Shown piece by piece: positions 7,645 through 24,254 of a stretch of DNA of 32,000 bases. Each line of letters opens with the position of its first letter. Positions within the stretch are counted from its first letter, which is position 1. A program made the translations under genes and the position numbers. The stretch spans positions 1-32,000 of the forward strand of contig JBHLKY010000008.1 in assembly GCA_048886185.1 (NCBI GenBank). The letters are read 5' to 3'. The notes beneath the pieces are model-generated. The model searched no databases. It saw only the letters and a program-made list of their open reading frames with translations, and was not told the DNA's origin. This DNA is from Candidatus Hermodarchaeota archaeon. GTDB taxonomy: Archaea; Asgardarchaeota; Heimdallarchaeia; Hodarchaeales; Hodarchaeaceae.

Positions 7645-8190
7645 ATGCCTACAAAACTGTTTGGTCGTGAAATTGAAAATCAAATCGCCTTTGTTGGATT
7701 AGCAAATGCAGGAAAAACCACATTAGTCAAAAGACTTAAAGGAGATGAAAATCTAGAGACCGTTCCAACAATGGGAATGAATATTGAGACCTTAAGAATT
7801 GGTAACATAGAAGTAATGGCAGCAGATTTAGGGGGCCAACCTACCTATCCTACTAGCTTGTGGGAACCATTTGTATCAAAAGCATCAGGTATTGTTTTTG
7901 TGTTTGATTCTGCAGACAGATCAAAGGTTGAGAATGCGGGAAAATGGTTGAAAAATGTTATTCAATGGGCACCGGAAGACTCTGCTTTCCTTTTTTTAGC
8001 AAATAAACAAGATTTATCAGAGGCAATGTCCCTTGAAAATATTATACACACGTTAGAACTGGAGAAAGAGATGTCTGCAAGGCCCAGAACCTTTGCAGTC
8101 TATCCTTGTTCAGCGTTAACGGGTGAGGGTGTCGATGAACCGTGGGATTGGATGAGTGATAGATTTCAGAGTAAAATTCCACGAAAGTAG
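7645..8190 (+). CDS. Arf-family-related small GTPase
   Basis: GLANAGKTT, PTMGMNIE, DLGGQ, FVFDSAD, NKQD, CSALTGEG. Confidence 0.92.
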   Translation: MPTKLFGREIENQIAFVGLANAGKTTLVKRLKGDENLETVPTMGMNIETLRIGNIEVMAADLGGQPTYPTSLWEPFVSKASGIVFVFDSADRSKVENAGKWLKNVIQWAPEDSAFLFLANKQDLSEAMSLENIIHTLELEKEMSARPRTFAVYPCSALTGEGVDEPWDWMSDRFQSKIPRK

Positions 8191-8199
8191 GTACCCTAA

Positions 8200-8763
8200 A
8201 TGAGTTTCCTTTCAAAGCTTCGCGCAAAATTTGCTAAAGAAAAATTAACAGTGAAGATTGCGTGGCTGGGTCTTGATCAGGCAGGAAAAACAACACTTGT
8301 CAAAAGGATAACTTCGGGGGAATTTGACAGCAGTACTTTCCGAACACTAGGTATGAATGTTGATGAATTCAGCTCTGGAAACGTTCGGTTTATCTCGTGG
8401 GACATTGGAGGCCAAGAAGCTTTCCGTGAATCATTATGGGAAAGCTATATGTCGGGTAGTATGGGTATCGTATATGTAGTTGATAGTGCTGACCGAGCAC
8501 GAATCAAGGAAGCTCAGACAGAATTATGGAAATATGTCTTAAACAATGATAAAGTAGAAAATATTCCAATTCTGGTTCTTGCTAACAAACAGGATCTTGA
8601 AAATGCCGCTTCAGCAGGTGAAGTTGCACGTGGACTTAACCTACACAAAGTTACAACTCATTCATATGCAATTGTTCCTACTTCAGCTAAAACTGGTTTT
8701 AACGTCGAAGAAGGACTGGAATGGCTTCGTCAAAGAGTAACTGAAAAGATTGAGCTCTTATAG
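8200..8763 (+). CDS. Arf/Arl-like small GTPase with N-terminal amphipathic helix
   Basis: MSFLSKLRAKF N-terminal helix, GLDQAGKTT, TLGMNV, WDIGGQ, VVDSAD, NKQD, GLNLH, SAKTG. Confidence 0.95.
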   Translation: MSFLSKLRAKFAKEKLTVKIAWLGLDQAGKTTLVKRITSGEFDSSTFRTLGMNVDEFSSGNVRFISWDIGGQEAFRESLWESYMSGSMGIVYVVDSADRARIKEAQTELWKYVLNNDKVENIPILVLANKQDLENAASAGEVARGLNLHKVTTHSYAIVPTSAKTGFNVEEGLEWLRQRVTEKIELL

Positions 8764-9758: not shown

Positions 9759-10358
9759 TTATTGCTTAATATAACTAGCAACTTCTTTGTACCTAAAAGG
9801 ATCTTTACCCTCTTTACCTACAACTTGGAAAAATTTGAACTGTGCAAGACCCTTCATATCAATCATAGCTGGATCAACCACAAGTGCAACAGAAAGATCA
9901 TTATGAAGCTGAAACGAATAAATATGGGTATTAATATCTGTTTGAGACAAAAATAATCCGTATCCAGGATGAGAATGCCACCATCCAAGGCAATGATTAT
10001 CATTTTCTAATATTTCTTCAAAAGCATCAAAATCATTATCAGAAAAAGAAACAGACACTTCATCACCTTCAGATACAAAAAGGATTTTAGATATTATCAG
10101 TTCATTGGTACGCTGCTGCTTTCCGCCTAGTAAGCCAATGGCCTCCCTAGGTTTGGATTTTATTGAATATTCAGTCATTTCACGTAGTAAATGTTTTGAG
10201 ATAGTTACTGATTGAACCTTAGCAACTAATGAGACGAGCTCGCCTTTGGATGTATCTGGTTTCTTAAGAATCACCTCGGATGCTGGTTTAAATATGACTT
10301 CTGTCTTTTTTTTGGAATTCTCTCCCTTTAAATCCTTTTGTTTCTCTTTTCCAGACAT
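9759..10358 (-). CDS. JAB1/MPN (JAMM) metalloprotease, Rpn11/CSN5/BRCC36-like Ubl isopeptidase
   Basis: REAIGLL...GWWHSHPGYGLFLSQTD = intact E...HxHx7Sx2D motif; VALVVDP. Confidence 0.93.
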   Translation of the reverse strand: MSGKEKQKDLKGENSKKKTEVIFKPASEVILKKPDTSKGELVSLVAKVQSVTISKHLLREMTEYSIKSKPREAIGLLGGKQQRTNELIISKILFVSEGDEVSVSFSDNDFDAFEEILENDNHCLGWWHSHPGYGLFLSQTDINTHIYSFQLHNDLSVALVVDPAMIDMKGLAQFKFFQVVGKEGKDPFRYKEVASYIKQ

Positions 10359-10390: not shown

Positions 10391-10933
10391 TCATTGGGCA
10401 TGTCTTTTAGTCCATTCCTCAGCGATTTCCCAAAATCGATCAAAATCCTTTTTCATAATTTCTCCAGCTTCAGGATTAAAAGGATCATTTGGATCAACAA
10501 GATATTCAGGAAAATCAGCATCCCCAGTTGCCCGATAAACATCTAGCATCATTTCGATATGTTCAAAAACACTAGGAAGAGTGATTGTTTCTTTCCATCC
10601 ACCTAGTTTTCCAAGATTATTCCAATTAACTAGACTAAGGCAGACATTAGAGCCCCATTTCCATTGTGTATTACCAGTTGCAATGTTAGGATGATAAATA
10701 GGAGTTAAAAAGTTAACAATAGGAGGTTTGAAGGGATACTCAGGAGGTAAGTCAACTGTGATCTCCCATCTACCCCCGTTATAAGGAGAATCCGCTTTTC
10801 CCTTAATTGTCGCCTTATAATGATGTAAGTCATTATTAACAATTAACCATTTAATATGGCTTGTTTTTGGTGGGTAAGTTTTCAACATTCGCTTGAACTC
10901 TTCTCTTAATCTTCTAGAGTGTAAATCCTGCAC
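10391..10933 (-). CDS. Ubiquitin-conjugating enzyme E2 (UBC fold, active)
   Basis: RRLREEF, SPYNGG, LPPEYPFKPP.V.FLTPIYHPNI, catalytic NVCL, DPFNPEAG...EWT. Confidence 0.95.
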   Translation of the reverse strand: MQDLHSRRLREEFKRMLKTYPPKTSHIKWLIVNNDLHHYKATIKGKADSPYNGGRWEITVDLPPEYPFKPPIVNFLTPIYHPNIATGNTQWKWGSNVCLSLVNWNNLGKLGGWKETITLPSVFEHIEMMLDVYRATGDADFPEYLVDPNDPFNPEAGEIMKKDFDRFWEIAEEWTKRHAQ

Positions 10934-11153: not shown

Positions 11154-11945
11154 ATGGAAGATATCCAAACTGATGTTTCTCAATGTAGTGGTTGTGGAGC
11201 TCCCCTTCCTATAAGACCAACATTCCAACATCCTGTAAAATGTGAATACTGTGATCTTTCAAATTACTTGAAAAGAGCTGCTGTTACACCGACAGAAGCG
11301 AAAATGATGGACGCAGAGGAGGAAGCTGAAAATTACTATCTTATTTACCAAGAATCACAAAAAATTCTAGAGAATTTTCCTGGAGAATTTGTTGGTGATG
11401 AAGTAAGTAAAATTAGAATAAAAATGCAGATTCATGAATTTGCTTTGCCTCTTTTACTCGTGTTGGACGATTTACCTGATCGACCCTATATAGATGGCCC
11501 TGCAAAACTTAGGGAAATTTTAGATTGTGAACTTAATGATTTAAAAAGTATGAAAACTTGGATCCCTGGCTCTAGTTCAGTTTTGGATGTTTTGGAAGAA
11601 ATATATCAAAGAGCAGATAAAAGGCTCCCTGAAGCTATGGGAGAACCGGTTGCTCTCTCTGATACCAGTTCTGTTCTTCAAGAAGAACGTGATCCTCTTA
11701 TACGTCAAATTCTCGCGAATTATGACGCATCAGCGGCTAAAAAAGAAATAACTGTAAGATTTTATGCTCAAGATGGTGAGGTAATCAATTTTATTATCAA
11801 AAGAAAGAAGAATTTACCCATAGGTCTTGAAAGTGATATTCTAACAAAATATCCACTAATCAGGGGTCCGTTAGAAGATTATGCAAAAGGGAGGATAGAT
11901 ATTCTAACTACACTTTCGGAAATAGAACGAATGTTTTACTCTTAA
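11154..11945 (+). CDS. Zn-ribbon protein with probable inactive UBC-fold (UEV/RWD/BRE-like) domain(s)
   Basis: CSGC...CEYC ribbon; middle region LLLVLDDLPDRPYID...LKSMKTWIPGSSSVLDVLEEI follows the UBC pattern but lacks HPN and a correctly placed Cys; GGTGA SD at 11140-11144. Confidence 0.55.
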   Translation: MEDIQTDVSQCSGCGAPLPIRPTFQHPVKCEYCDLSNYLKRAAVTPTEAKMMDAEEEAENYYLIYQESQKILENFPGEFVGDEVSKIRIKMQIHEFALPLLLVLDDLPDRPYIDGPAKLREILDCELNDLKSMKTWIPGSSSVLDVLEEIYQRADKRLPEAMGEPVALSDTSSVLQEERDPLIRQILANYDASAAKKEITVRFYAQDGEVINFIIKRKKNLPIGLESDILTKYPLIRGPLEDYAKGRIDILTTLSEIERMFYS

Positions 11946-11967
11946 GATAGAAATTTAGGTGAAAAAT

Positions 11968-12288
11968 ATGAGCAAAAAGGATGTTATTTGGGATTCTGAT
12001 AGAAGAAAACCCTCTACTGATGACAGCATTGAAAAGATGATTAAAGTGCGCTTTAAAGACCCACAACTTCCTCCAGATCAAAATATCCGTGAAAAATACA
12101 TTAATATTAATGGAACAGTCTTCCAGGCAATTACTGCGGCCCGTGATGCCTTTAATATTCCTGAAGTTGTGCCAATCGCTCTTTTATTCAAAGGAAGAAG
12201 AATGAACCCTTCAAATAATCTTTCCTCCTATGGAATTGAGCAAAATGCAATTCTAATGATCGTTCCAGACCAAATTAAGGGAGGATAA
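11968..12288 (+). CDS. Ubiquitin-like (beta-grasp) modifier with terminal di-Gly and UFM1-like features
   Basis: Ends ...IVPDQIKGG-stop; LLFKGRRMNPSNNLSSYGI resembles the ubiquitin core; KVRFK-DPQLP, AF.IP, NP and IVPD resemble UFM1; ATG at 11968 follows AGGTGA. Confidence 0.88.
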   Translation: MSKKDVIWDSDRRKPSTDDSIEKMIKVRFKDPQLPPDQNIREKYININGTVFQAITAARDAFNIPEVVPIALLFKGRRMNPSNNLSSYGIEQNAILMIVPDQIKGG

Positions 12289-12336: not shown

Positions 12337-13569
12337 ATGACACAAAATCTCCCTTTTTCTTCTAAATATGACAGGCAGGAACGACTAGACCTTTGGGATC
12401 AACAAATTATTGAGAAAAGTGTTATATTACTTGCGGGAGTCGGAGGAACTGGTAGTGAGCTAGCCAAAAACTTGGCTTTGTTAGGAGTTGGTACTTTAAT
12501 TCTTGTTGATGATGACACAATCGAGTTTTCAAATTTAAATCGCCAAATGTTATTCAAAGAGGAAGATGTGGAGCAAAAGAAAGCAGAGATTGCTAAAAAA
12601 AGGATTCAAGAACAATTTAATCCTGATATCATAATTGAGTCTTACTCAAAAAAATTGCAAAACATTCCCCAAAAGATTTATCAGAAGGTAGATATCATTG
12701 CTGGTTGTGTAGATAACTTTCTAGCACGACAATATCTCAATGCGATGGCAATTGAATTGAATATCCCTCTAGTGGATTCAGCTACGGATGGATATTTTGG
12801 TCAAATTCAGTATATAAAACCAAGGATAACGGCATGCCTGGCTTGTGAAACACCCCCGCCACCAGATGAAACTCGAGTTTTAACGGCCCCATGTACTTTG
12901 GTTGGTGTACCTCGTATGAGAGAACACTGTGCTTGGAAAGCTCTGTATGAATTTAACACAATCCACAAACGACAACCTGTAGAAGCATCACCAGAGGATA
13001 TTGCTGAGCTCACAAGAATCGCAAATCAGTTTACTAAAGAGTATAATTTTGGGCGTTTTGAAGAAAAAGAGCTGTCTCAGCTAGTTCTTTTTCATGTGCC
13101 TAGTCTGATCACTGTTAACGCAGTAACAAGTGGGATACAGTCTCAAGAGATAGTCAAATCTCTATTTCTTGAGAAAAAAACAATTATGAAAAAGTCAGAA
13201 CAGAAAACTTTAGAAAATCTGTTGAAAGAACATAGATTTCGCATTCCTCCATTTTCTATTTATTCAGCTTTAACAGGAACGATAAATACATTTGATCTGG
13301 TTCCTGATCCAGATTGTTTAGTATGTGGAAAGTCTAATTCTGTGATCAATGTAATAAAAACATTAACAGTGGATCCTAAATTATCTTTTGCATCTGTACT
13401 TAATCTTATTGGCCAAGAGAACAACAAAGATTACGCAGGATTCCGAGGAAATTTCCTTCTTCCTGAAGATGAAGTTATTCAAAATCTTCTTTCAGATGGA
13501 GACCGAATAACACTTAGTTCCATAACTGATAGCGAGGAAATCCGTGTACAAATCAAATACAAGAATTAG
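12337..13569 (+). CDS. Ubl-activating enzyme E1 of eukaryotic (UBA3/UBA2-like) architecture
   Basis: YDRQ, GVGGTG, DDDTIEFSNLNRQ, CVDN..AR, Zn pair CLAC/CLVC, catalytic-Cys domain APCTLVGVPRMREHC, VPSLITVNAV, C-terminal UFD-like region. Confidence 0.93.
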   Translation: MTQNLPFSSKYDRQERLDLWDQQIIEKSVILLAGVGGTGSELAKNLALLGVGTLILVDDDTIEFSNLNRQMLFKEEDVEQKKAEIAKKRIQEQFNPDIIIESYSKKLQNIPQKIYQKVDIIAGCVDNFLARQYLNAMAIELNIPLVDSATDGYFGQIQYIKPRITACLACETPPPPDETRVLTAPCTLVGVPRMREHCAWKALYEFNTIHKRQPVEASPEDIAELTRIANQFTKEYNFGRFEEKELSQLVLFHVPSLITVNAVTSGIQSQEIVKSLFLEKKTIMKKSEQKTLENLLKEHRFRIPPFSIYSALTGTINTFDLVPDPDCLVCGKSNSVINVIKTLTVDPKLSFASVLNLIGQENNKDYAGFRGNFLLPEDEVIQNLLSDGDRITLSSITDSEEIRVQIKYKN

Positions 13570-13584
13570 AATAAGAAAGGTTTT

Positions 13585-13899
13585 TCACTCTTTATAGAAT
13601 AAACGTATCTTGTTTCTTCTTTTGGGGATAATTGGTTCGATTTTTGGATTGAGATAAGGTTCTTTGAACCCCAGATCTGGGATTTTATCATAAGTCAACT
13701 TCTCATAAATTTTTCTTGTTATTTGATCCCGTGTTTTTTGTGTTGTTACTGGTTTCTTGTAGAATTTTCGAGCAACTCGTGGACGATGTTGAGGAATAGT
13801 CATACGTTTTCCACATTTGGGACAATACCAACTTCCAGAGACAGGAAGATCTCGTGGAATATAACCGCAATTCGTACATTTAAATGTACTCTGAGACAA
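13585..13899 (-). CDS. Small basic Zn-ribbon protein
   Basis: CTNC...CPKC followed by a Lys/Arg-rich tail. Confidence 0.65.
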   Translation of the reverse strand: MSQSTFKCTNCGYIPRDLPVSGSWYCPKCGKRMTIPQHRPRVARKFYKKPVTTQKTRDQITRKIYEKLTYDKIPDLGFKEPYLNPKIEPIIPKRRNKIRLFYKE

Positions 13900-14033: not shown

Positions 14034-15797
14034 GTGAGACTAATGTTTGGGAGAAAGAGACAACAATGGTTCATGAAGGCTCAAACAGCTACTGAGCCCA
14101 TTGATTTGCGTGAGATAGCTCCAAAAGATATCCTAGAGGATGTTGCTTCATATTTAAGGATGAAAATTGGTTCTGAAGAACTTAATGGTTTTGTTAGTTT
14201 CGATGACGAGAAATTCATCCCTACTATATACCTCCAACAGTTACTGTCCCGTGAATTGGCAGAAAAAGGATTTATCGATATTTGTAGCATTATTGACACA
14301 ACTAATCTACCAGGTGAGTTATTAGAGGCTCAAATCAAGGTAAACGTTCAAGATATCGATGGTTTCTTTGATGTCATACATAGGAAATTTTTTTCTATAC
14401 AAGGAGCTAGGAATGAAATTAAACAGACTTTAGGTGCTACAACCGTATTAGACTTAAAATTTCTCCTGAATAAGCTTTTCTGGACAGAGGAACACCTAGA
14501 AGGCATTTTGGATCTTTTGGCTCAAAATAATCAATTTGTTGGGTATATTGATCCGATAAAACAACGAATATACAATTTTACTCCTTTAATCTTCTCCTCT
14601 CCATCTGACTTTCAAAGAAATATCAAGTATCTCAAACGTTTCATCAATACAAGCTTTCAAATGGAGTCACAAGTATCTTTAAAGCATATTAGCAAATTAA
14701 CAAGGCAATCCGAAGAAAAATGTCTTGAATTTCTGGAAAAAAATCGAGATAATATCAATTTTATATTTTCCACTAATTTTGATTACCTTTATCCATCAAT
14801 GGATATTATAAACCAGATTTTAAAGGATATATTCGTTTATCGTGATATTCCTATTAAATTCTGGCTTCAACGTCTTGATGTAGACAGAGGTGACCTTCTT
14901 AAAATAATTAAAATTCTAAATCAAAGTTTAAAGGGAACCTTATCATCAGAAGAGTTTATCGCTCCATCTTTGGAAGAATGGTTTGAAAATGGTATTGATA
15001 TAGAAAATTTAGCTACAGCACTGAATTTAGATCCATTAAACCTACTGAATCAAATTTATAAACTGGCAAAACTCCTTGGTTTAAGCATTATTGCTGGGGA
15101 AAGTTCTGATCCCTTTCTAGTTAAAGGAGTAAAACAATTTGAAATATTTTGCCAAGTAGACACCTCTTCTTACTCTAATCCTCATCTTTACTTCGAGTGT
15201 CAAAACTGTAGGCGAATCATGTGCTCAAATTGCCGTTCCGCAGGAAGTAAACATGAATGTCCGTTTTGTCGAAACATCTCTGCATTTATTATAGATCTAC
15301 CTAGACATTGTCTGTACTGTCACGTTAACTATACACATTCATATAACTTAATTGACACAGAGGAGTGCTATTTTTGCAAAAGAGGCCCTTTAAAAACAGG
15401 ATGGATCGAATTTGTACCTGATTCATCTGAAGCCTCTAAAATAACCCCAGTTTTATCAAAATTTCTCAAACAGACTGTTGAACCTGATATTCCGCTCCAA
15501 AAAATTATCTCTTTATTAAAAGGCTCAGATAGTGAAACGATTTCATTATTGGAAAGTTATATCCTACATGGAACCATACAAGGGAGGATAAGTATCCAAG
15601 ATATGTCCTTACAATTAACCACACAAGAAGAGAAATTTACTTGTGGTATTTGTGAACTATCCTTTGACGAATCTATGAGATATTCATGCTCTTCATGTAA
15701 CACAAAAGTATGTATGGGGTGTTTCAAGGAAATGAGCAGTGTGGGAATGATCTTTTGTCCTGAATGTGGCGAAAATCTTGAAAAAGAGATTCAATAG
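14034..15797 (+). CDS. Putative E3 ligase: tandem winged-helix (UFL1/PCI-like) repeats plus RING-like and C4C4 RING domains
   Basis: C-terminal C-x2-C-x11-C-x2-C-x4-C-x2-C-x11-C-x2-C (15642-15767); second RING-like C-x2-D-x12-C-x2-C-x4-C-x2-C-x8-C-x2-C (15150-15269); CLYC/CYFC ribbon; N-terminal repeats similar to remembered UFL1. Start may be ATG at 14043. Confidence 0.7.
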   Translation: [587 protein letters not shown]

Positions 15798-15823: not shown

Positions 15824-16714
15824 TTATACCTGTTGAGCCCTAAATTTTGCCAACTTCTTTGAATACTTATCCGTAAGTTCTTTGTACTTTTCCTCGTTAA
15901 GTTTACCACTTAGAAACATTTCATCAGCTTGTTCAAGCATTTGTTCATATTTCTTAATTTTCTCTGTAATATTGTCTAAATCCTTTCTTTCTTCAGCTAA
16001 TTCTTTTTGTTGGTCCAAAACTTGTTTCTCAATCTCATATGCTAACAAAGCCTGATATTCATCAGGAACCTTAAAACCCCCGATATCCAACCCAACCAAT
16101 TCCAAACCCCAACGAGATGTCTCAGGACCGAGTTCAGATCGAGTTTGAATTTCCAAACTTCTACGCTCTTTAAGCAGCTCTGGTACTGAATAGCGTGACA
16201 TTACATGTTTCACTGCAGCAATGATTGTCTGTTTAACCCAATTCTTTAATTCATCTCCAGAATAATATTGTTTATGGGAAACAATGTTCATAATGAAATT
16301 ACGAGGATTGACAACTCTCATACGAGAAATACCATAACAACCCACCATGATGTTGTCTGATGTATAAACTCCAGGTGTTCCCCATTTGATGATGAATTCA
16401 CGCTTTGTTACCCAGATAATCTCACTTCCAGGCCGTTTAGCACTTTTGTCAAGTTCATAGATCCCACTCCCTGCGACCCCTACTAATGATCCTGATTGCA
16501 ATAATATTGCATTTTCAGGGTCTTTAACAATGAATCCATCATATTTCCGAAAACTATCATGATCTTCAGATTTTAATCTACTAATTAATGAACTTTTTGT
16601 TTCTGGGCCAAAATTCGAACTCAGAATTACTTTTCCTTTAAATTTTTTTGTACCAATGTGCATAGCATCGCCTATTCGGCGAAATAATCCACCAAATTTC
16701 TCTACTTCAGCCAT
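15824..16714 (-). CDS. SPFH (band 7) domain protein with C-terminal coiled coil
   Basis: FIV..PENAILL..G, YG..RMRVVNP..F, WGLELVGLDIGGFKVP; charged helical tail; no TM segment seen; GGTGA SD. Confidence 0.75.
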   Translation of the reverse strand: MAEVEKFGGLFRRIGDAMHIGTKKFKGKVILSSNFGPETKSSLISRLKSEDHDSFRKYDGFIVKDPENAILLQSGSLVGVAGSGIYELDKSAKRPGSEIIWVTKREFIIKWGTPGVYTSDNIMVGCYGISRMRVVNPRNFIMNIVSHKQYYSGDELKNWVKQTIIAAVKHVMSRYSVPELLKERRSLEIQTRSELGPETSRWGLELVGLDIGGFKVPDEYQALLAYEIEKQVLDQQKELAEERKDLDNITEKIKKYEQMLEQADEMFLSGKLNEEKYKELTDKYSKKLAKFRAQQV

Positions 16715-16724
16715 TATTTTTCAC

Positions 16725-17726
16725 CTACCAGTCATTATCCCCATATAATCCTGGAAAATAATATTGATCACCTGAATCAAGAGATGAAACTTTTCGAGCA
16801 ATCTTTTGATCAACTAGACTCTCAAGAACTCTAACAACACGTTGTTGGTCCCATTTTGTACCCAAAATAACCTCTTCCAAGGTGACATATCCTTTATTAA
16901 CTGCTAAATCAAAAACCTTCCTCGCATCACTACCAAGAGTCACAGGAACAAATTCCACTATTTTAATTCCTGATCTTTTTGAGATTCCTTCAATTAGGGA
17001 TTGTTTTTGAAGATTTTTACAGGTTTTTTCAAGATCCTTTATTGAAAAATCGACATCAGGAACTTGAGTTTTCAAAGCTGTATAAAGGTTTGCAAGCGAA
17101 ATATATCCACCAGAACTTGCACGAAGATTCTTACCATGTTCAAGAACAAGGTTTTCAAGTGTTTCTTCAAATCTTCGCTTCCCAAATATTTTGGGCTTTT
17201 TTGTAGTATCTAAAGCAGTTATAGTTAATGCACGGCCTTCTTTTCGCAGTAATTCTCTTTCAAGCTGTTTTATTCGTGTATCGTATTTTTCTTGCAAATC
17301 CTTAATGCTTTCTGTTGAAACAGGAGCTCCATCAGCTAATTTCTTTTGAACTTGAATAACATCATGTAATTTTGTGACATTCTCACGAATCTCACGAATC
17401 TCCTCTCGAACATCCAGCCCCTCCTCACCAAAATCGAGATCCTCTGCTAATTTTAACGATTGATCTGCTATCCTCTCGCAAAGAATTGAAGCAAGTAGTT
17501 GTGCAACCCTTATTTCACCGCTCGATTTAAGATTAGATTTTGTTTGGTCAGGATGAAGAATGTAATCAGGAATAGTTTCTGTTTTATATCGAATCTCTTC
17601 GAATTTTGTGTAGATTTTTACTGTAATGTCAGCGACACTCCGAGCATTAGTGGAAACACTATTATTTAAACGTGTTAATGCAGTACTGGCCTTTAAAAAA
17701 TATTCTTTCATGTGTTCAAGCACCAA
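16725..17726 (-). CDS. ESCRT-II Vps22/Vps36 (EAP30)-like protein with long N-terminal helical/coiled-coil extension
   Basis: GGYISLANLY...FSIKDL...VPVTL...VFDLAVNKGYVTLEEV..GTKWDQQRVVRVLESLV...YYFPGL matches the SNF8/Vps22 tandem winged helices. Confidence 0.85.
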   Translation of the reverse strand: MVLEHMKEYFLKASTALTRLNNSVSTNARSVADITVKIYTKFEEIRYKTETIPDYILHPDQTKSNLKSSGEIRVAQLLASILCERIADQSLKLAEDLDFGEEGLDVREEIREIRENVTKLHDVIQVQKKLADGAPVSTESIKDLQEKYDTRIKQLERELLRKEGRALTITALDTTKKPKIFGKRRFEETLENLVLEHGKNLRASSGGYISLANLYTALKTQVPDVDFSIKDLEKTCKNLQKQSLIEGISKRSGIKIVEFVPVTLGSDARKVFDLAVNKGYVTLEEVILGTKWDQQRVVRVLESLVDQKIARKVSSLDSGDQYYFPGLYGDNDW

Positions 17727-22131: not shown

Positions 22132-22626
22132 GTGATAGATCCCAGAAGATTTGATACCGTTCTTAGTAAAATCATCAAAAGCGAACCGGGTATTAAGAAG
22201 GTCATACTTGTCGATCGAACTGGTCTCACTATTGCCCATGTTTCTAAATTCAGCTATGTTAGTATTGATGTAGATGGAATTGGAGCCATTGCATCAGCTG
22301 TTTTCATGGCATCGGCTGAACAAGGATTAAATCTGACAATTGGAGGCCTAGATATTGTTACTTCAGAATTTGATACTGGGAAGATCTTTGCAAGCACATG
22401 TGGGCGTGGTATTCTGACTATCATTTCAGATGCCGATGTGAACATTGGCATGATTAGGCTATTAATGAGAAAAGCCAATGAAGAGCTCAGCAGTATTTTG
22501 GATGAATTTTTAGCGGGAAAACCAACACGATCAATAGGAGGGGTGGCTTCAGCGGCTCCTGAGGTTCGTACAAGCCTAGAAAAGGATGAATTAGAAGCAG
22601 CGTTACGTGAACTTGAAAAGTTTTAA
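22132..22626 (+). CDS. Roadblock/LC7 (MglB-like) protein with C-terminal tail
   Basis: VILVDRTGLTIA, IGAIASAVF, GILTIISD..VNIGMIRL; directly upstream of the MglA-like GTPase. Confidence 0.88.
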   Translation: MIDPRRFDTVLSKIIKSEPGIKKVILVDRTGLTIAHVSKFSYVSIDVDGIGAIASAVFMASAEQGLNLTIGGLDIVTSEFDTGKIFASTCGRGILTIISDADVNIGMIRLLMRKANEELSSILDEFLAGKPTRSIGGVASAAPEVRTSLEKDELEAALRELEKF

Positions 22627-22673
22627 TTAAATCTAAGAATCCCGACTCCTGACCTGCGAAGGAGACTTATTAC

Positions 22674-23261
22674 TTGAGAAAGGACGCGGAAGGTCGTCAC
22701 CGATTCAAAATAGTTTTCTACGGTCCATCTCTAGGAGGAAAAACGTCCACTCTTGCCTGGTTATACAATAAAGTGGATGGACTGGAAAAAGGAAAATTCA
22801 CACAATTAGCAGATCCAACAGGACGGACACTATTCTTTGATTTTGTACCAATGCAGGCAACTACTGGTGTTGTGTTTGACGTATATACTACTGCTGGACA
22901 AGAACGTCATAAACACCAGCGGAAAATAGTAATTCAAGGAGTTGATGGGCTCATTTTTGTAGTTGATTCAAGTGCATCACAATTTCAGGAGAATATTGAA
23001 TCACTTAATGAGTTACAGATGCATTTAGGCGATCAACTGGGTACAAGCATCCCTTTGGTTATTACACTTAACAAACGAGATGTTCAAGATGCTTTACCTA
23101 GATCAGAGTTGATTCAAAGGTTGAAAATCCAAGATTATCCTATCTATGAAACTGTTGCAACCACAGGTCTTGGAGTGAAGCGCGCGTTTCAATCTCTGGC
23201 TCGTGAAATATTAATGATCCAACTTTACGGGACAAAAGAGTCTCAAATTACCAGAACTTAG
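22674..23261 (+). CDS. MglA-like small GTPase
   Basis: KIVFYGPSLGGKTS, RTLFFDF.P, YTTAGQ (Asp-less G3), GVDGLIFVVDS, NKRD, close to Myxococcus MglA motifs. Confidence 0.92.
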   Translation: MRKDAEGRHRFKIVFYGPSLGGKTSTLAWLYNKVDGLEKGKFTQLADPTGRTLFFDFVPMQATTGVVFDVYTTAGQERHKHQRKIVIQGVDGLIFVVDSSASQFQENIESLNELQMHLGDQLGTSIPLVITLNKRDVQDALPRSELIQRLKIQDYPIYETVATTGLGVKRAFQSLAREILMIQLYGTKESQITRT

Positions 23262-23849
23262 ATAAGATCCATTGAAAGGGATTTTTTTTATTGGTTAAGC
23301 ACTAAATTTTAAATTAATGAAAAATCGAAAAATTTTGTCTATCCATCCTTCAATTCCCTTCTTATGAAGAAGCTGAAAATATTTCTTCCTAATAAAGAAT
23401 TTAAGGCTTTTTTAGGATCTTAATTTTCAATCAAAGCCAATTTGTTGTTTTCATGAGTATTTACAGCATCTTCAGATAAATAAATCATATGTGGAAACAT
23501 TATATATTAAAGAAAGATGAATTCAATAAGATTTCATTGATGGTTAACTTTCTTCAAAATTTGATGATCTGTAATTCGCATTATAATATCTGCATGTTAG
23601 GCACTAATTTTTTTCCCTTCCTATATTTTTATCCTAGATCTGCTTTGATGGTTAGAAGAAGTTGTTTCTTAGGAATCATGAATCCTGTAAAATTTTTGGG
23701 GAAAAGAATTCACAATGTTTTTAAGGTGTTAAAGCAGAAAATTCACATAAGTTGGCTAAAGCGAGAATGTAAAAAGAATTTATCTACTACAAAAATATCA
23801 GAAATCTAAAATAATGATCTAAGAATGACGAGTTTTAGGGGTGTAATGC

Positions 23850-24254
23850 TTGTACATTCCAGATAGCGAAACAGATACCCAGGTTCATAAGGAAATAGCT
23901 GAAGTGCTTGAGGCTTTTGTGGGTAAATTACCAGCAATAGATTTTGCCTCAGTAGTGTCTTTAGAAGGGCTTCCAATTTCATCTTGGCCACCAACACTCC
24001 CAGCAGGCTTGGATGATGTGCGAGTAGCCGCTATGACAGCTGCCATACTAAGCTTAGGCGAGAGAGCAGTGATGGAGACAGGAAAAGGGGAAATGACTCG
24101 TATCTTAGTTGAAGGGGACAATGGTTATATGATTTCTGTACAAGCAGGAACAAAAGCTGTCTTGACGGCTTCAGCAAGCCGTTCTGTTAAGCTAGGACTT
24201 ATTTTTTTAGATATGAAACAAGCAGCTAAAAAAATAGGGGATATACTTGGATAA
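23850..24254 (+). CDS. Roadblock/LC7 (MglB-like) protein
   Basis: VVSLEGLPIS, RVAAMTAAILSLGERA..E.GKG...ILVEGDNG, LGLIFLDMK. Confidence 0.92.
   Translation: MYIPDSETDTQVHKEIAEVLEAFVGKLPAIDFASVVSLEGLPISSWPPTLPAGLDDVRVAAMTAAILSLGERAVMETGKGEMTRILVEGDNGYMISVQAGTKAVLTASASRSVKLGLIFLDMKQAAKKIGDILG

Follow-up and report, generated by a model that had tools for sequence, protein, structure and literature searches.

The DNA analysed here (the window) is a 32,000 nucleotide stretch from a Candidatus Hermodarchaeota archaeon of the order Hodarchaeales (positions 1 to 32,000 of contig JBHLKY010000008.1, GenBank assembly GCA_048886185.1), and it carries a cluster of genes for a ubiquitin-type conjugation cascade. 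Inside this cluster lies a gene whose 584 amino acid (aa) product contains six tandem winged helices, homologous to those of the eukaryotic E3 scaffold UFL1, and a C-terminal part of about 230 residues made up, in order, of RING-like module 1, a C4 zinc ribbon, another winged helix and RING-like module 2 (Table 1). We predict, at a probability of about 0.6, that this protein is the E3 ligase of the neighbouring cascade, which comprises an E1, a UBC-type E2, a GG-ended modifier and a JAB protease. An earlier note on this DNA had read the gene as a UFL1/DDRGK1-like scaffold fused to NOT4-type RING domains; the open reading frame (ORF) that it gave, 14034-15797, and every motif that it quoted are present in the translation.

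Winged-helix array and zinc modules

The ORF also opens at a GTG at 14034, and residues are counted from this GTG throughout; the ATG at 14043 (MFGRK) is the likelier start on the sequence evidence, because the homologues and the genome-wide hidden Markov model match begin there. A 100% identical 584 aa record exists among known proteins, and a search of 5.8 billion proteins retrieved 63 relatives, most of them about 583 aa long; the handful that are shorter are in the main partial records or come from short contigs, and the source names given for the relatives are all Heimdall-group, Hodarchaeales or Promethearchaeota. Conservation was scored in an alignment of 35 homologues with identities down to 37%.

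The N-terminal array is specifically UFL1-like and is not a set of generic winged helices. The AlphaFold2 model built from the alignment (predicted local distance difference test, pLDDT, 88.3; predicted template modelling score, pTM, 0.76) has six tandem H-H-H-E-E units. A profile of the N-terminal family matches four UFL1 entries among PDB sequences at expectation values (E) of 1e-6 to 9e-6, with the next match at 0.029, and in Foldseek the top ranks are held by five UFL1 chains (1.5e-9 to 1.9e-7; the best over 363 columns, others over up to 372), followed by SelB at 1.3e-4 and by PCI proteins of COP9 (CSN) and the proteasome lid at 1e-2 or worse. The array aligns with an Asgard UFL1 region in hhalign (probability 93%, E 3e-7), the Atlas shape search places clusters of Asgard DDRGK/UFL1 and eukaryotic UFL1 proteins at the top, at low template modelling scores (TM-scores) of 0.29-0.35, and VIA-align gives a UFL1-DDRGK1 chimera (Z 10.8, root-mean-square deviation (rmsd) 8.6 Å, 235 aligned) and UFL1 (Z 10.2, rmsd 11.3 Å, 228 aligned). 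The UFL1-like scaffold of the earlier note is thereby borne out: UFL1 is the only family that the N-terminal profile finds in the PDB and is far ahead of PCI in Foldseek, and generic PCI repeats, which the note had named as the alternative, do worse in both searches and tie in VIA Z. A PCI-complex subunit as the main identity is ruled out, since no PCI protein appears in the profile search of the PDB at E up to 1.

On the Pfam side, 17 of the 35 homologues match PF09743 (E3_UFM1_ligase) at E<0.1, and of those that were scanned one by one P0037 alone passes the cut-off (27.5 bits). Pfam PCI matches are commoner (27/35) and fall on single winged helices at residues ~125-178 and ~479-522. PCI-type winged helices are a building block of the UFL1 family and not a rival identity, because proteins that clearly pass PF09743 also match Pfam PCI strongly. 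Within the array, HMMER aligns residues 66-101 with UFL1 residues ~123-158, the same register that had been read by eye. The repeat units allow two similarly scoring registers against UFL1, and Pfam and hhalign favour the one that starts near UFL1 residue 60. A second by-eye match, of FMKAQTA (residues 13-19) to UFL1 FQRAQFA, did not hold up: it occurs in no alignment, about a third of the homologues lack its A-Q pair, and it conflicts with the favoured register. The UFC1- and DDRGK1-binding N-terminus of UFL1 may be missing here, the register being ambiguous since the units repeat; the first winged helix of the model looks complete, unlike the partial one of UFL1.

SelB, the next structural match after UFL1, also bears on a different reading, in which the protein would be a regulator that binds RNA or DNA with its winged helices, as in SelB, and its zinc fingers, and in which the position among ubiquitin genes would be incidental or regulatory. 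SelB further occupies Atlas rows 4-7, and there are many weak Pfam matches to helix-turn-helix families. However, UFL1 is about five orders of magnitude ahead of SelB in Foldseek, SelB is absent from the sequence matches, the zinc modules described next resemble RINGs and not nucleic-acid-binding fingers, and the linkage to ubiquitin genes is conserved, so that we consider a nucleic-acid-binding regulator very unlikely.

The first Cys array of the C-terminal part, CQVD-x12-CQNC-x4-CSNC-x8-CPFC, spans residues 373-412; the ribbon follows with CLYC (426-429) and CYFC (445-448), and the last array, CGIC-x11-CSSC-x4-CMGC-x11-CPEC, takes up 537-578. All 35 homologues keep D376 and the seven Cys of the first array, the four ribbon Cys and every Cys of the last array but C540, which is Cys in 33 of them and Asp in two. 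This conservation of the 20 ligands indicates that the arrays are selected features and not chance. Judged from their sequences, the two RING-like modules are duplicates of one another; in hhalign every ligand of the one falls on its equivalent in the other (probability 89%, E 2e-6), D376 of module 1 occupying the position of C540 in module 2. Because Cys stands at the D376 position in the relatives P0073 and P0121 (see below) and Asp at 540 in two homologues, the interchange supports Asp as a ligand-equivalent. Besides the 19 ligand Cys, one Cys alone is conserved, C84 (14283-14285, motif IDIC), which belongs to the second winged helix and is kept in 33/35 homologues. An RBR or other Cys-relay E3 is ruled out, there being no conserved spare Cys in the last zinc domain.

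Module 2 has eight ligands in a cross-brace-type spacing (C-x2-C-x11-C-x2-C-x4-C-x2-C-x11-C-x2-C). With all eight aligned, its profile matches the MAT1 RING best in the PDB (6.7e-4), then those of TRIM21 (0.0056) and of TRIM32, Bre1 and UHRF1 (~0.01-0.05), with NOT4 at 0.11; TFIIH p44 is, with MAT1, among its best sequence matches, and ZZ and FYVE domains reach 0.007-0.013 in partial alignments. The Atlas's own model of module 2 has TM-scores of 0.58-0.73 to RING families, and VIA gives the ZZ domain of Nbr1 (Z 6.2, rmsd 1.9 Å, 47 aligned). As in RINGs, a helix (561-569) follows ligands 5 and 6 in the AlphaFold2 model. Residue 539 is hydrophobic (V/I/L) in 34/35 homologues, 564 is Y/F and 567 M/I/L in all 35, and 576 is Pro in 31; these four we take, from c-Cbl, BRCA1 and CNOT4, to be the E2-contact positions of canonical RINGs.

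In the model, module 1 lacks a central helix; it has a shorter loop where the helix of module 2 sits, and its profile alone finds nothing in the PDB better than E 0.39. When the C-terminus was folded by itself (366-587; pLDDT 68) module 1 was poorly modelled; the cut took away strands 351-366, which pack with it. The Atlas's own model of module 1 reaches TM-scores of 0.40-0.46 to the RNF212, NOSIP and Rtf2 RINGs, which are leads only. Module 1 plus ribbon forms a conserved unit that recurs in the paralogue P0121 (probability 96.7%, E 3.3e-10). The name "RING-like" is justified for module 2, and module 1 earns it by descent. The RING arrays of the earlier note thus stand in part, as to ligand alignment, the MAT1 match and shape, with ZZ, B-box and DC1 domains among the weak matches, and from its term "NOT4-type" we would keep the all-Cys ligand set and the spacing, NOT4 itself reaching only E 0.11.

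The winged helix between the zinc modules had been assigned to DDRGK1, and we find that PCI winged helices fit it as well or better. HMMER does align residues 500-519 with the DDRGK1 winged helix in the register proposed, at a non-significant E of 0.23-0.67. VIA places PCID2 first (Z 9.7/8.8, rmsd 3.5/1.4 Å, 71/62 aligned), then CSN and proteasome lid proteins (Z 8.3-8.5, rmsd 2.1-3.8 Å, 61-68 aligned) and DDRGK1 (Z 7.6, rmsd 2.1-2.2 Å, 59-60 aligned); Pfam PCI reaches E 1e-5 to 1e-8 and matches the inter-module region in homologues at 7e-6. Aligned with an Asgard protein whose DDRGK domain is genuine, this winged helix pairs with a PCI-like repeat instead of the DDRGK part. The assignment to DDRGK1 therefore fails. 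The best Foldseek match of the C-terminal model is Nse1 (3.1e-4 over 163 columns, TM-score 0.22).

Table 1. The E3-like gene, its domains and the neighbouring genes in the window
Feature	Position	Strand	Description
Whole gene	14043..15797	+	584 aa from ATG; UFL1-like winged-helix array, then RING-like zinc modules
Six tandem winged helices, homologous to UFL1 array	14043..15089	+	residues ~4-352; AlphaFold2 model, PDB profile, Foldseek, hhalign
RING-like module 1	15135..15287	+	residues 368-418; C373, D376, C389, C392, C397, C400, C409, C412, plus H407; all invariant
C4 zinc ribbon	15303..15383	+	residues 424-450; C426, C429, C445, C448; invariant
PCI-type winged helix between zinc modules	15429..15626	+	residues 466-531; VIA, Pfam PCI matches in homologues
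RING-like module 2, C4C4	15630..15779	+	residues 533-582; C537, C540, C552, C555, C560, C563, C575, C578
JAB/MPN deubiquitinase-like protease	9759..10358	-	Pfam JAB 3.8e-12
Canonical UBC-type E2, presumed partner	10391..10933	-	Pfam UQ_con 2.9e-24; HPN motif and catalytic Cys
263 aa protein	11154-11945	+	N-terminal zinc ribbon; no Pfam match
Ubiquitin-like modifier	11959..12288	+	Pfam Rad60-SLD and ubiquitin; C-terminus ...QIKGG-stop
E1-like activating enzyme	12337..13569	+	Pfam ThiF 7.5e-53
104 aa zinc-ribbon protein	13585..13899	-	N-terminal CxxC...CxxC ribbon; basic, proline-rich tail
SPFH protein and EAP30 (Vps22/36-like) protein	15824..17726	-	SPFH 15824-16714, Band_7 4e-16; EAP30 16725-17726, 3.4e-7; conserved neighbours

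Gene neighbourhood and predicted function

The order of genes in Table 1 is kept around homologues of 46-51% identity, with the SPFH and EAP30 genes adjacent, and a relative at E 1e-36 still has JAB, E2 and E1 genes beside it in rearranged order. A 99-106 aa neighbour adjoins the E3-like gene in four related loci, distant ones included, and the 104 aa zinc-ribbon protein of the window is a candidate partner or substrate. The system is ubiquitin-type and not UFM1-type: the genome, which is 96% complete, gives no Ufm1 match at E up to 1, its best UFC1 match has 11.3 bits (cut-off 25), and its best match to DDRGK (PF09756) 11.4 bits (cut-off 27.8). The modifier, ending in GG-stop, needs no C-terminal processing and has a charged N-terminal extension of ~25-30 residues. 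A gene similar in size to that of the 263 aa protein lies at its position, upstream of modifier and E1, in both loci examined. Farther away, the window has two adjacent Arf-family GTPase genes (7645-8763, +) and a Roadblock/LC7 - small GTPase - Roadblock/LC7 group (22132-24254, +), both also found in the related locus L005.

For the probable E3 of this cascade we infer E2 binding, ligase activity and substrate as follows. The six N-terminal winged helices would hold a substrate or partner, for which the SPFH protein, the Vps22/36-like protein and the 104 aa zinc-ribbon protein are candidates, and the C4C4 module 2 (533-582) would recruit the charged E2. Module 1 with its ribbon, as a diverged duplicate that lacks the central helix and packs against the array, would more likely be structural or partner-binding. 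A Pfam scan of the window identified no other E3 candidate in the cluster. Co-folding with the neighbouring E2 had been suggested in the earlier note, and when the full-length protein and this E2, both as alignments, were co-folded alongside three controls, the score was 0.35 (runs 0.30, 0.37, 0.35) against 0.00 for the best control, with contact agreement between runs of at least 90% and a partner pLDDT of at least 78. The mark so reached is also reached by 58 of 80 solved complexes and by two of 110 mismatched pairs, and scores at 0.60 or under comprise seven of those 80 complexes and both passing mismatches; the support is weak, and the pass may be due to likeness to solved RING-E2 complexes.

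Several observations weigh against a UFL1-type RING ligase. As regards the array, its PF09743 match (18.7 bits, E 0.0014) is under the 23.2-bit cut-off, and in VIA-align CSN2 (Z 10.6, rmsd 3.4 Å, 104 aligned) ties with UFL1, only aligned length favouring the latter (228-284 vs ~60-105 for PCI proteins). As regards the fingers, the protein (P0001) is under the Pfam cut-offs for every RING model, its best Pfam zinc-domain match being DC1/C1_2 (23.6 bits vs a cut-off of 26), the scores do not separate RING, ZZ, B-box and DC1 domains, and no Arg/Lys linchpin follows the last Cys, residue 579 being Gly in 31/35 homologues. The RINGs of MAT1 and p44, moreover, are better known for TFIIH/CAK assembly than for ligation. 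The co-fold score does not locate which part would touch the E2. Lastly, the distant relative P0073 has no E1 or E2 gene within 8 kb, and another distant relative has no ubiquitin genes nearby.

In a rival reading the protein is a non-catalytic scaffold or adaptor, in which the zinc modules would bind proteins as in MAT1 or TFIIH p44 and the array would bridge the SPFH and Vps22/36-like proteins, the E2 not being recruited. That the MAT1 RING and p44 are the best matches of module 2 agrees with such a role, as do the missing linchpin residue and the C-terminal model's likeness to Nse1, a winged-helix-plus-RING subunit of a larger complex; and P0073, with no E1/E2 nearby, still lies directly downstream of, and co-oriented with, EAP30 and SPFH genes. 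On the other hand, the linkage to JAB, E2 and E1 survives rearrangement, positions of E2-contact type are conserved in module 2, the E2 co-fold is above all controls, though weakly, and the cluster offers no other E3 candidate. We therefore think a purely scaffolding protein somewhat unlikely, and favour the E3 ligase.

Distribution, relatives and evolution

In a set of 400 Asgard genomes, all 21 of the window's genus (21/21) encode the full-length form, as does a single other member of the order (2e-87); the rest of the class lacks it. The N-terminal profile matches 21 proteins in a set of 1.84 billion representative proteins; beyond the family and four divergent variants, the next matches are Asgard proteins that pass Pfam's UFL1 threshold. 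Two of the variants, P0071 and P0073, keep all domains; P0072 (L007:121-1779:+) has an N-terminal membrane helix, the ribbon, the winged helix and module 2 without module 1, and P0075 keeps module 1 and ribbon without module 2. The zinc modules have thus been gained or lost separately.

The finger itself is a lineage-expanded module, because it is also found in a paralogue, in another membrane protein and in short ORFs of sister genomes. The paralogue, the 915 aa P0121 of the same genome (contig C27, about 35183-37930; L001:205-2952:-), has ~370 residues of membrane helices (polytopic), followed by winged helices of UFL1 type that score 23.9 bits on PF09743, above the cut-off, and by two RING-plus-ribbon units with a winged-helix-like stretch between them, one of which is the unit that aligns with residues 368-451; around it lie metabolic genes and a gene for a DEAD helicase, with none of the ubiquitin system. 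The scaffold-plus-finger combination exists, then, in soluble and membrane-anchored forms. A 557 aa protein, also of this genome (contig C1, L008:2106-3779:-), starts with a Gly/Arg-rich stretch, has a large middle domain flanked by two membrane helices as well as zinc ribbons, and ends in a finger of the same type, CQLD-x12-CEQC-x4-CGDC-x11-CPYC, in which Asp again stands at ligand position 2. ORFs of ~370-385 aa in sister genomes match only residues ~460-580, that is, winged helix and module 2 (examples are G075:C115:658-1023 and G076:C231:1551-1925).

Outside the family the nearest relatives are P0077, P0082 and P0080, which score 38-49 bits with the N-terminal profile. P0077 and P0082 are single chains of ~790-810 aa with DDRGK (E 2e-11 and 3e-11) and then UFL1 (37-53 bits), and P0077 also ends in a Vps28 domain; P0080 consists of HEAT repeats and UFL1. 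Pfam scans of these three revealed no RING or other zinc-finger family. ORFs of DDRGK+UFL1 type occur in other Asgard families, and fusion architectures of the P0077/P0080 kind were noted in a preprint (Liu et al. 2020, 10.1101/2020.10.19.343400). We note that the DDRGK-then-UFL1 order of P0077 and P0082 matches that of the engineered DDRGK1-UFL1 chimera of PDB 8b9x.

The earlier note had gone on to suggest that a single-chain UFL1+DDRGK1+RING ligase could be the ancestral form, before the RING was lost; such a protein would stand for the forerunner of the eukaryotic UFM1 E3 and would work in a proto-UFMylation pathway. In its favour, the array is genuinely akin to UFL1, the DDRGK1 register read by eye is the one that HMMER gives, and the origin of UFL1 and DDRGK1 has been placed in Asgard archaea (Picchianti et al. 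2023, PMC10183829). However, the match to DDRGK1 lacks significance, PCI winged helices being as good or better, the genome holds no DDRGK, Ufm1 or UFC1 match over cut-off, the E2 is a canonical UBC protein with an HPN motif, and the modifier matches ubiquitin and Rad60-SLD. The architecture is, moreover, confined to one genus and one relative, and the RING-less Asgard DDRGK+UFL1(+Vps28) fusions score 37-53 bits on PF09743 against the 18.7 of the window's protein. We regard a UFM1-type ancestor of this kind as highly improbable, and the ancestral-state inference as possible but unsupported. A lineage-specific fusion in Hodarchaeales is the simpler reading, because the RING-less single-chain DDRGK+UFL1 proteins of Asgard archaea sit closer to eukaryotic UFL1 on the Pfam model. 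A more speculative history, which we think decidedly unlikely, would have the UFL1 scaffold begin in the Asgard ancestor as the arm with which a RING-type ubiquitin ligase, paired with a canonical UBC E2, held its substrate; soluble and membrane-anchored forms of this ligase would survive in Hodarchaeales, while eukaryotic UFL1 would have lost the RING and switched to UFC1 and UFM1, with DDRGK1 as its membrane anchor.

Comparison with known ligases and scaffolds

UFL1 is unusual among E3s in being without a RING, HECT or RBR domain, and the origin of a ligase built on a scaffold is still to be explained. Homologues are recognised in Asgard archaea by IPR018611, which we take to be the InterPro entry for UFL1. 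Such Asgard homologues are well established, IPR018611 having served as an Asgard E3 marker (Hatano et al. 2022, PMC9192718). Our literature search, with subscription journals outside its coverage, found no description of a UFL1 scaffold and a RING in one chain. Asgard archaea were already known to have UFL1 homologues and to have RING E3s, and the fusion is restricted to one small lineage. Even so, an Asgard UFL1 relative with RING-like fingers beside a canonical E2 is a concrete protein with which to ask whether the scaffold once served ubiquitin-type ligation. As an E3 it would supply the "missing E3" of the ubiquitin cluster of Hodarchaeales and connect that cluster physically with its SPFH and ESCRT-II-like neighbours.

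The CNOT4 (NOT4) RING has the spacing C-x2-C-x13-C-x-C-x4-C-x2-C-x11-C-x2-C. It shares with module 2 the all-Cys ligands and a similar spacing (PDB 1e4u, 1ur6), and differs in having one residue between ligands 3 and 4 where module 2 has two; with NOT4 at E 0.11 and MAT1 at 6.7e-4 there is no specific kinship. Nse1 of SMC5/6 (PDB 7dg2, 5hvq) likewise joins a winged helix to a RING variant at its C-terminus, but the TM-score of 0.22 and the absence of a sequence match indicate that this resemblance is probably one of architecture only.

The Asgard fusions DDRGK+UFL1+PCI(+Vps28) and HEAT+UFL1 (P0077, P0082 and P0080) have UFL1-type repeats in common with the window's protein; they differ from it in that the three examples are without a Pfam zinc finger and that P0077 and P0082 have a true N-terminal DDRGK domain. 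Small RING E3s of archaeal ubiquitin operons are active in vitro (Caldiarchaeum, Hennell James et al. 2017, PMC5654768; Helarchaeia, 10.1101/2023.07.25.550441). Like the protein described here these have a RING-type finger and are encoded beside E1, E2, ubiquitin and JAB, but they are short stand-alone proteins, whereas here a duplicated finger, known from sequence, is fused to a 350-residue UFL1-like scaffold.

Eukaryotic UFL1 (PF09743; PDB 8ohd, 8qfc, 8c0d, 8b9x) is the closest counterpart of the array: both have about six tandem winged helices, and the profile and Foldseek matches between them are collinear across two to five repeats. UFL1, however, has no zinc domain, pairs with UFC1 and UFM1, and has its first winged helix completed by DDRGK1, whereas the Hodarchaeales protein carries two RING-like modules and a ribbon, and its gene adjoins those of a canonical UBC E2 and a ubiquitin-like modifier.

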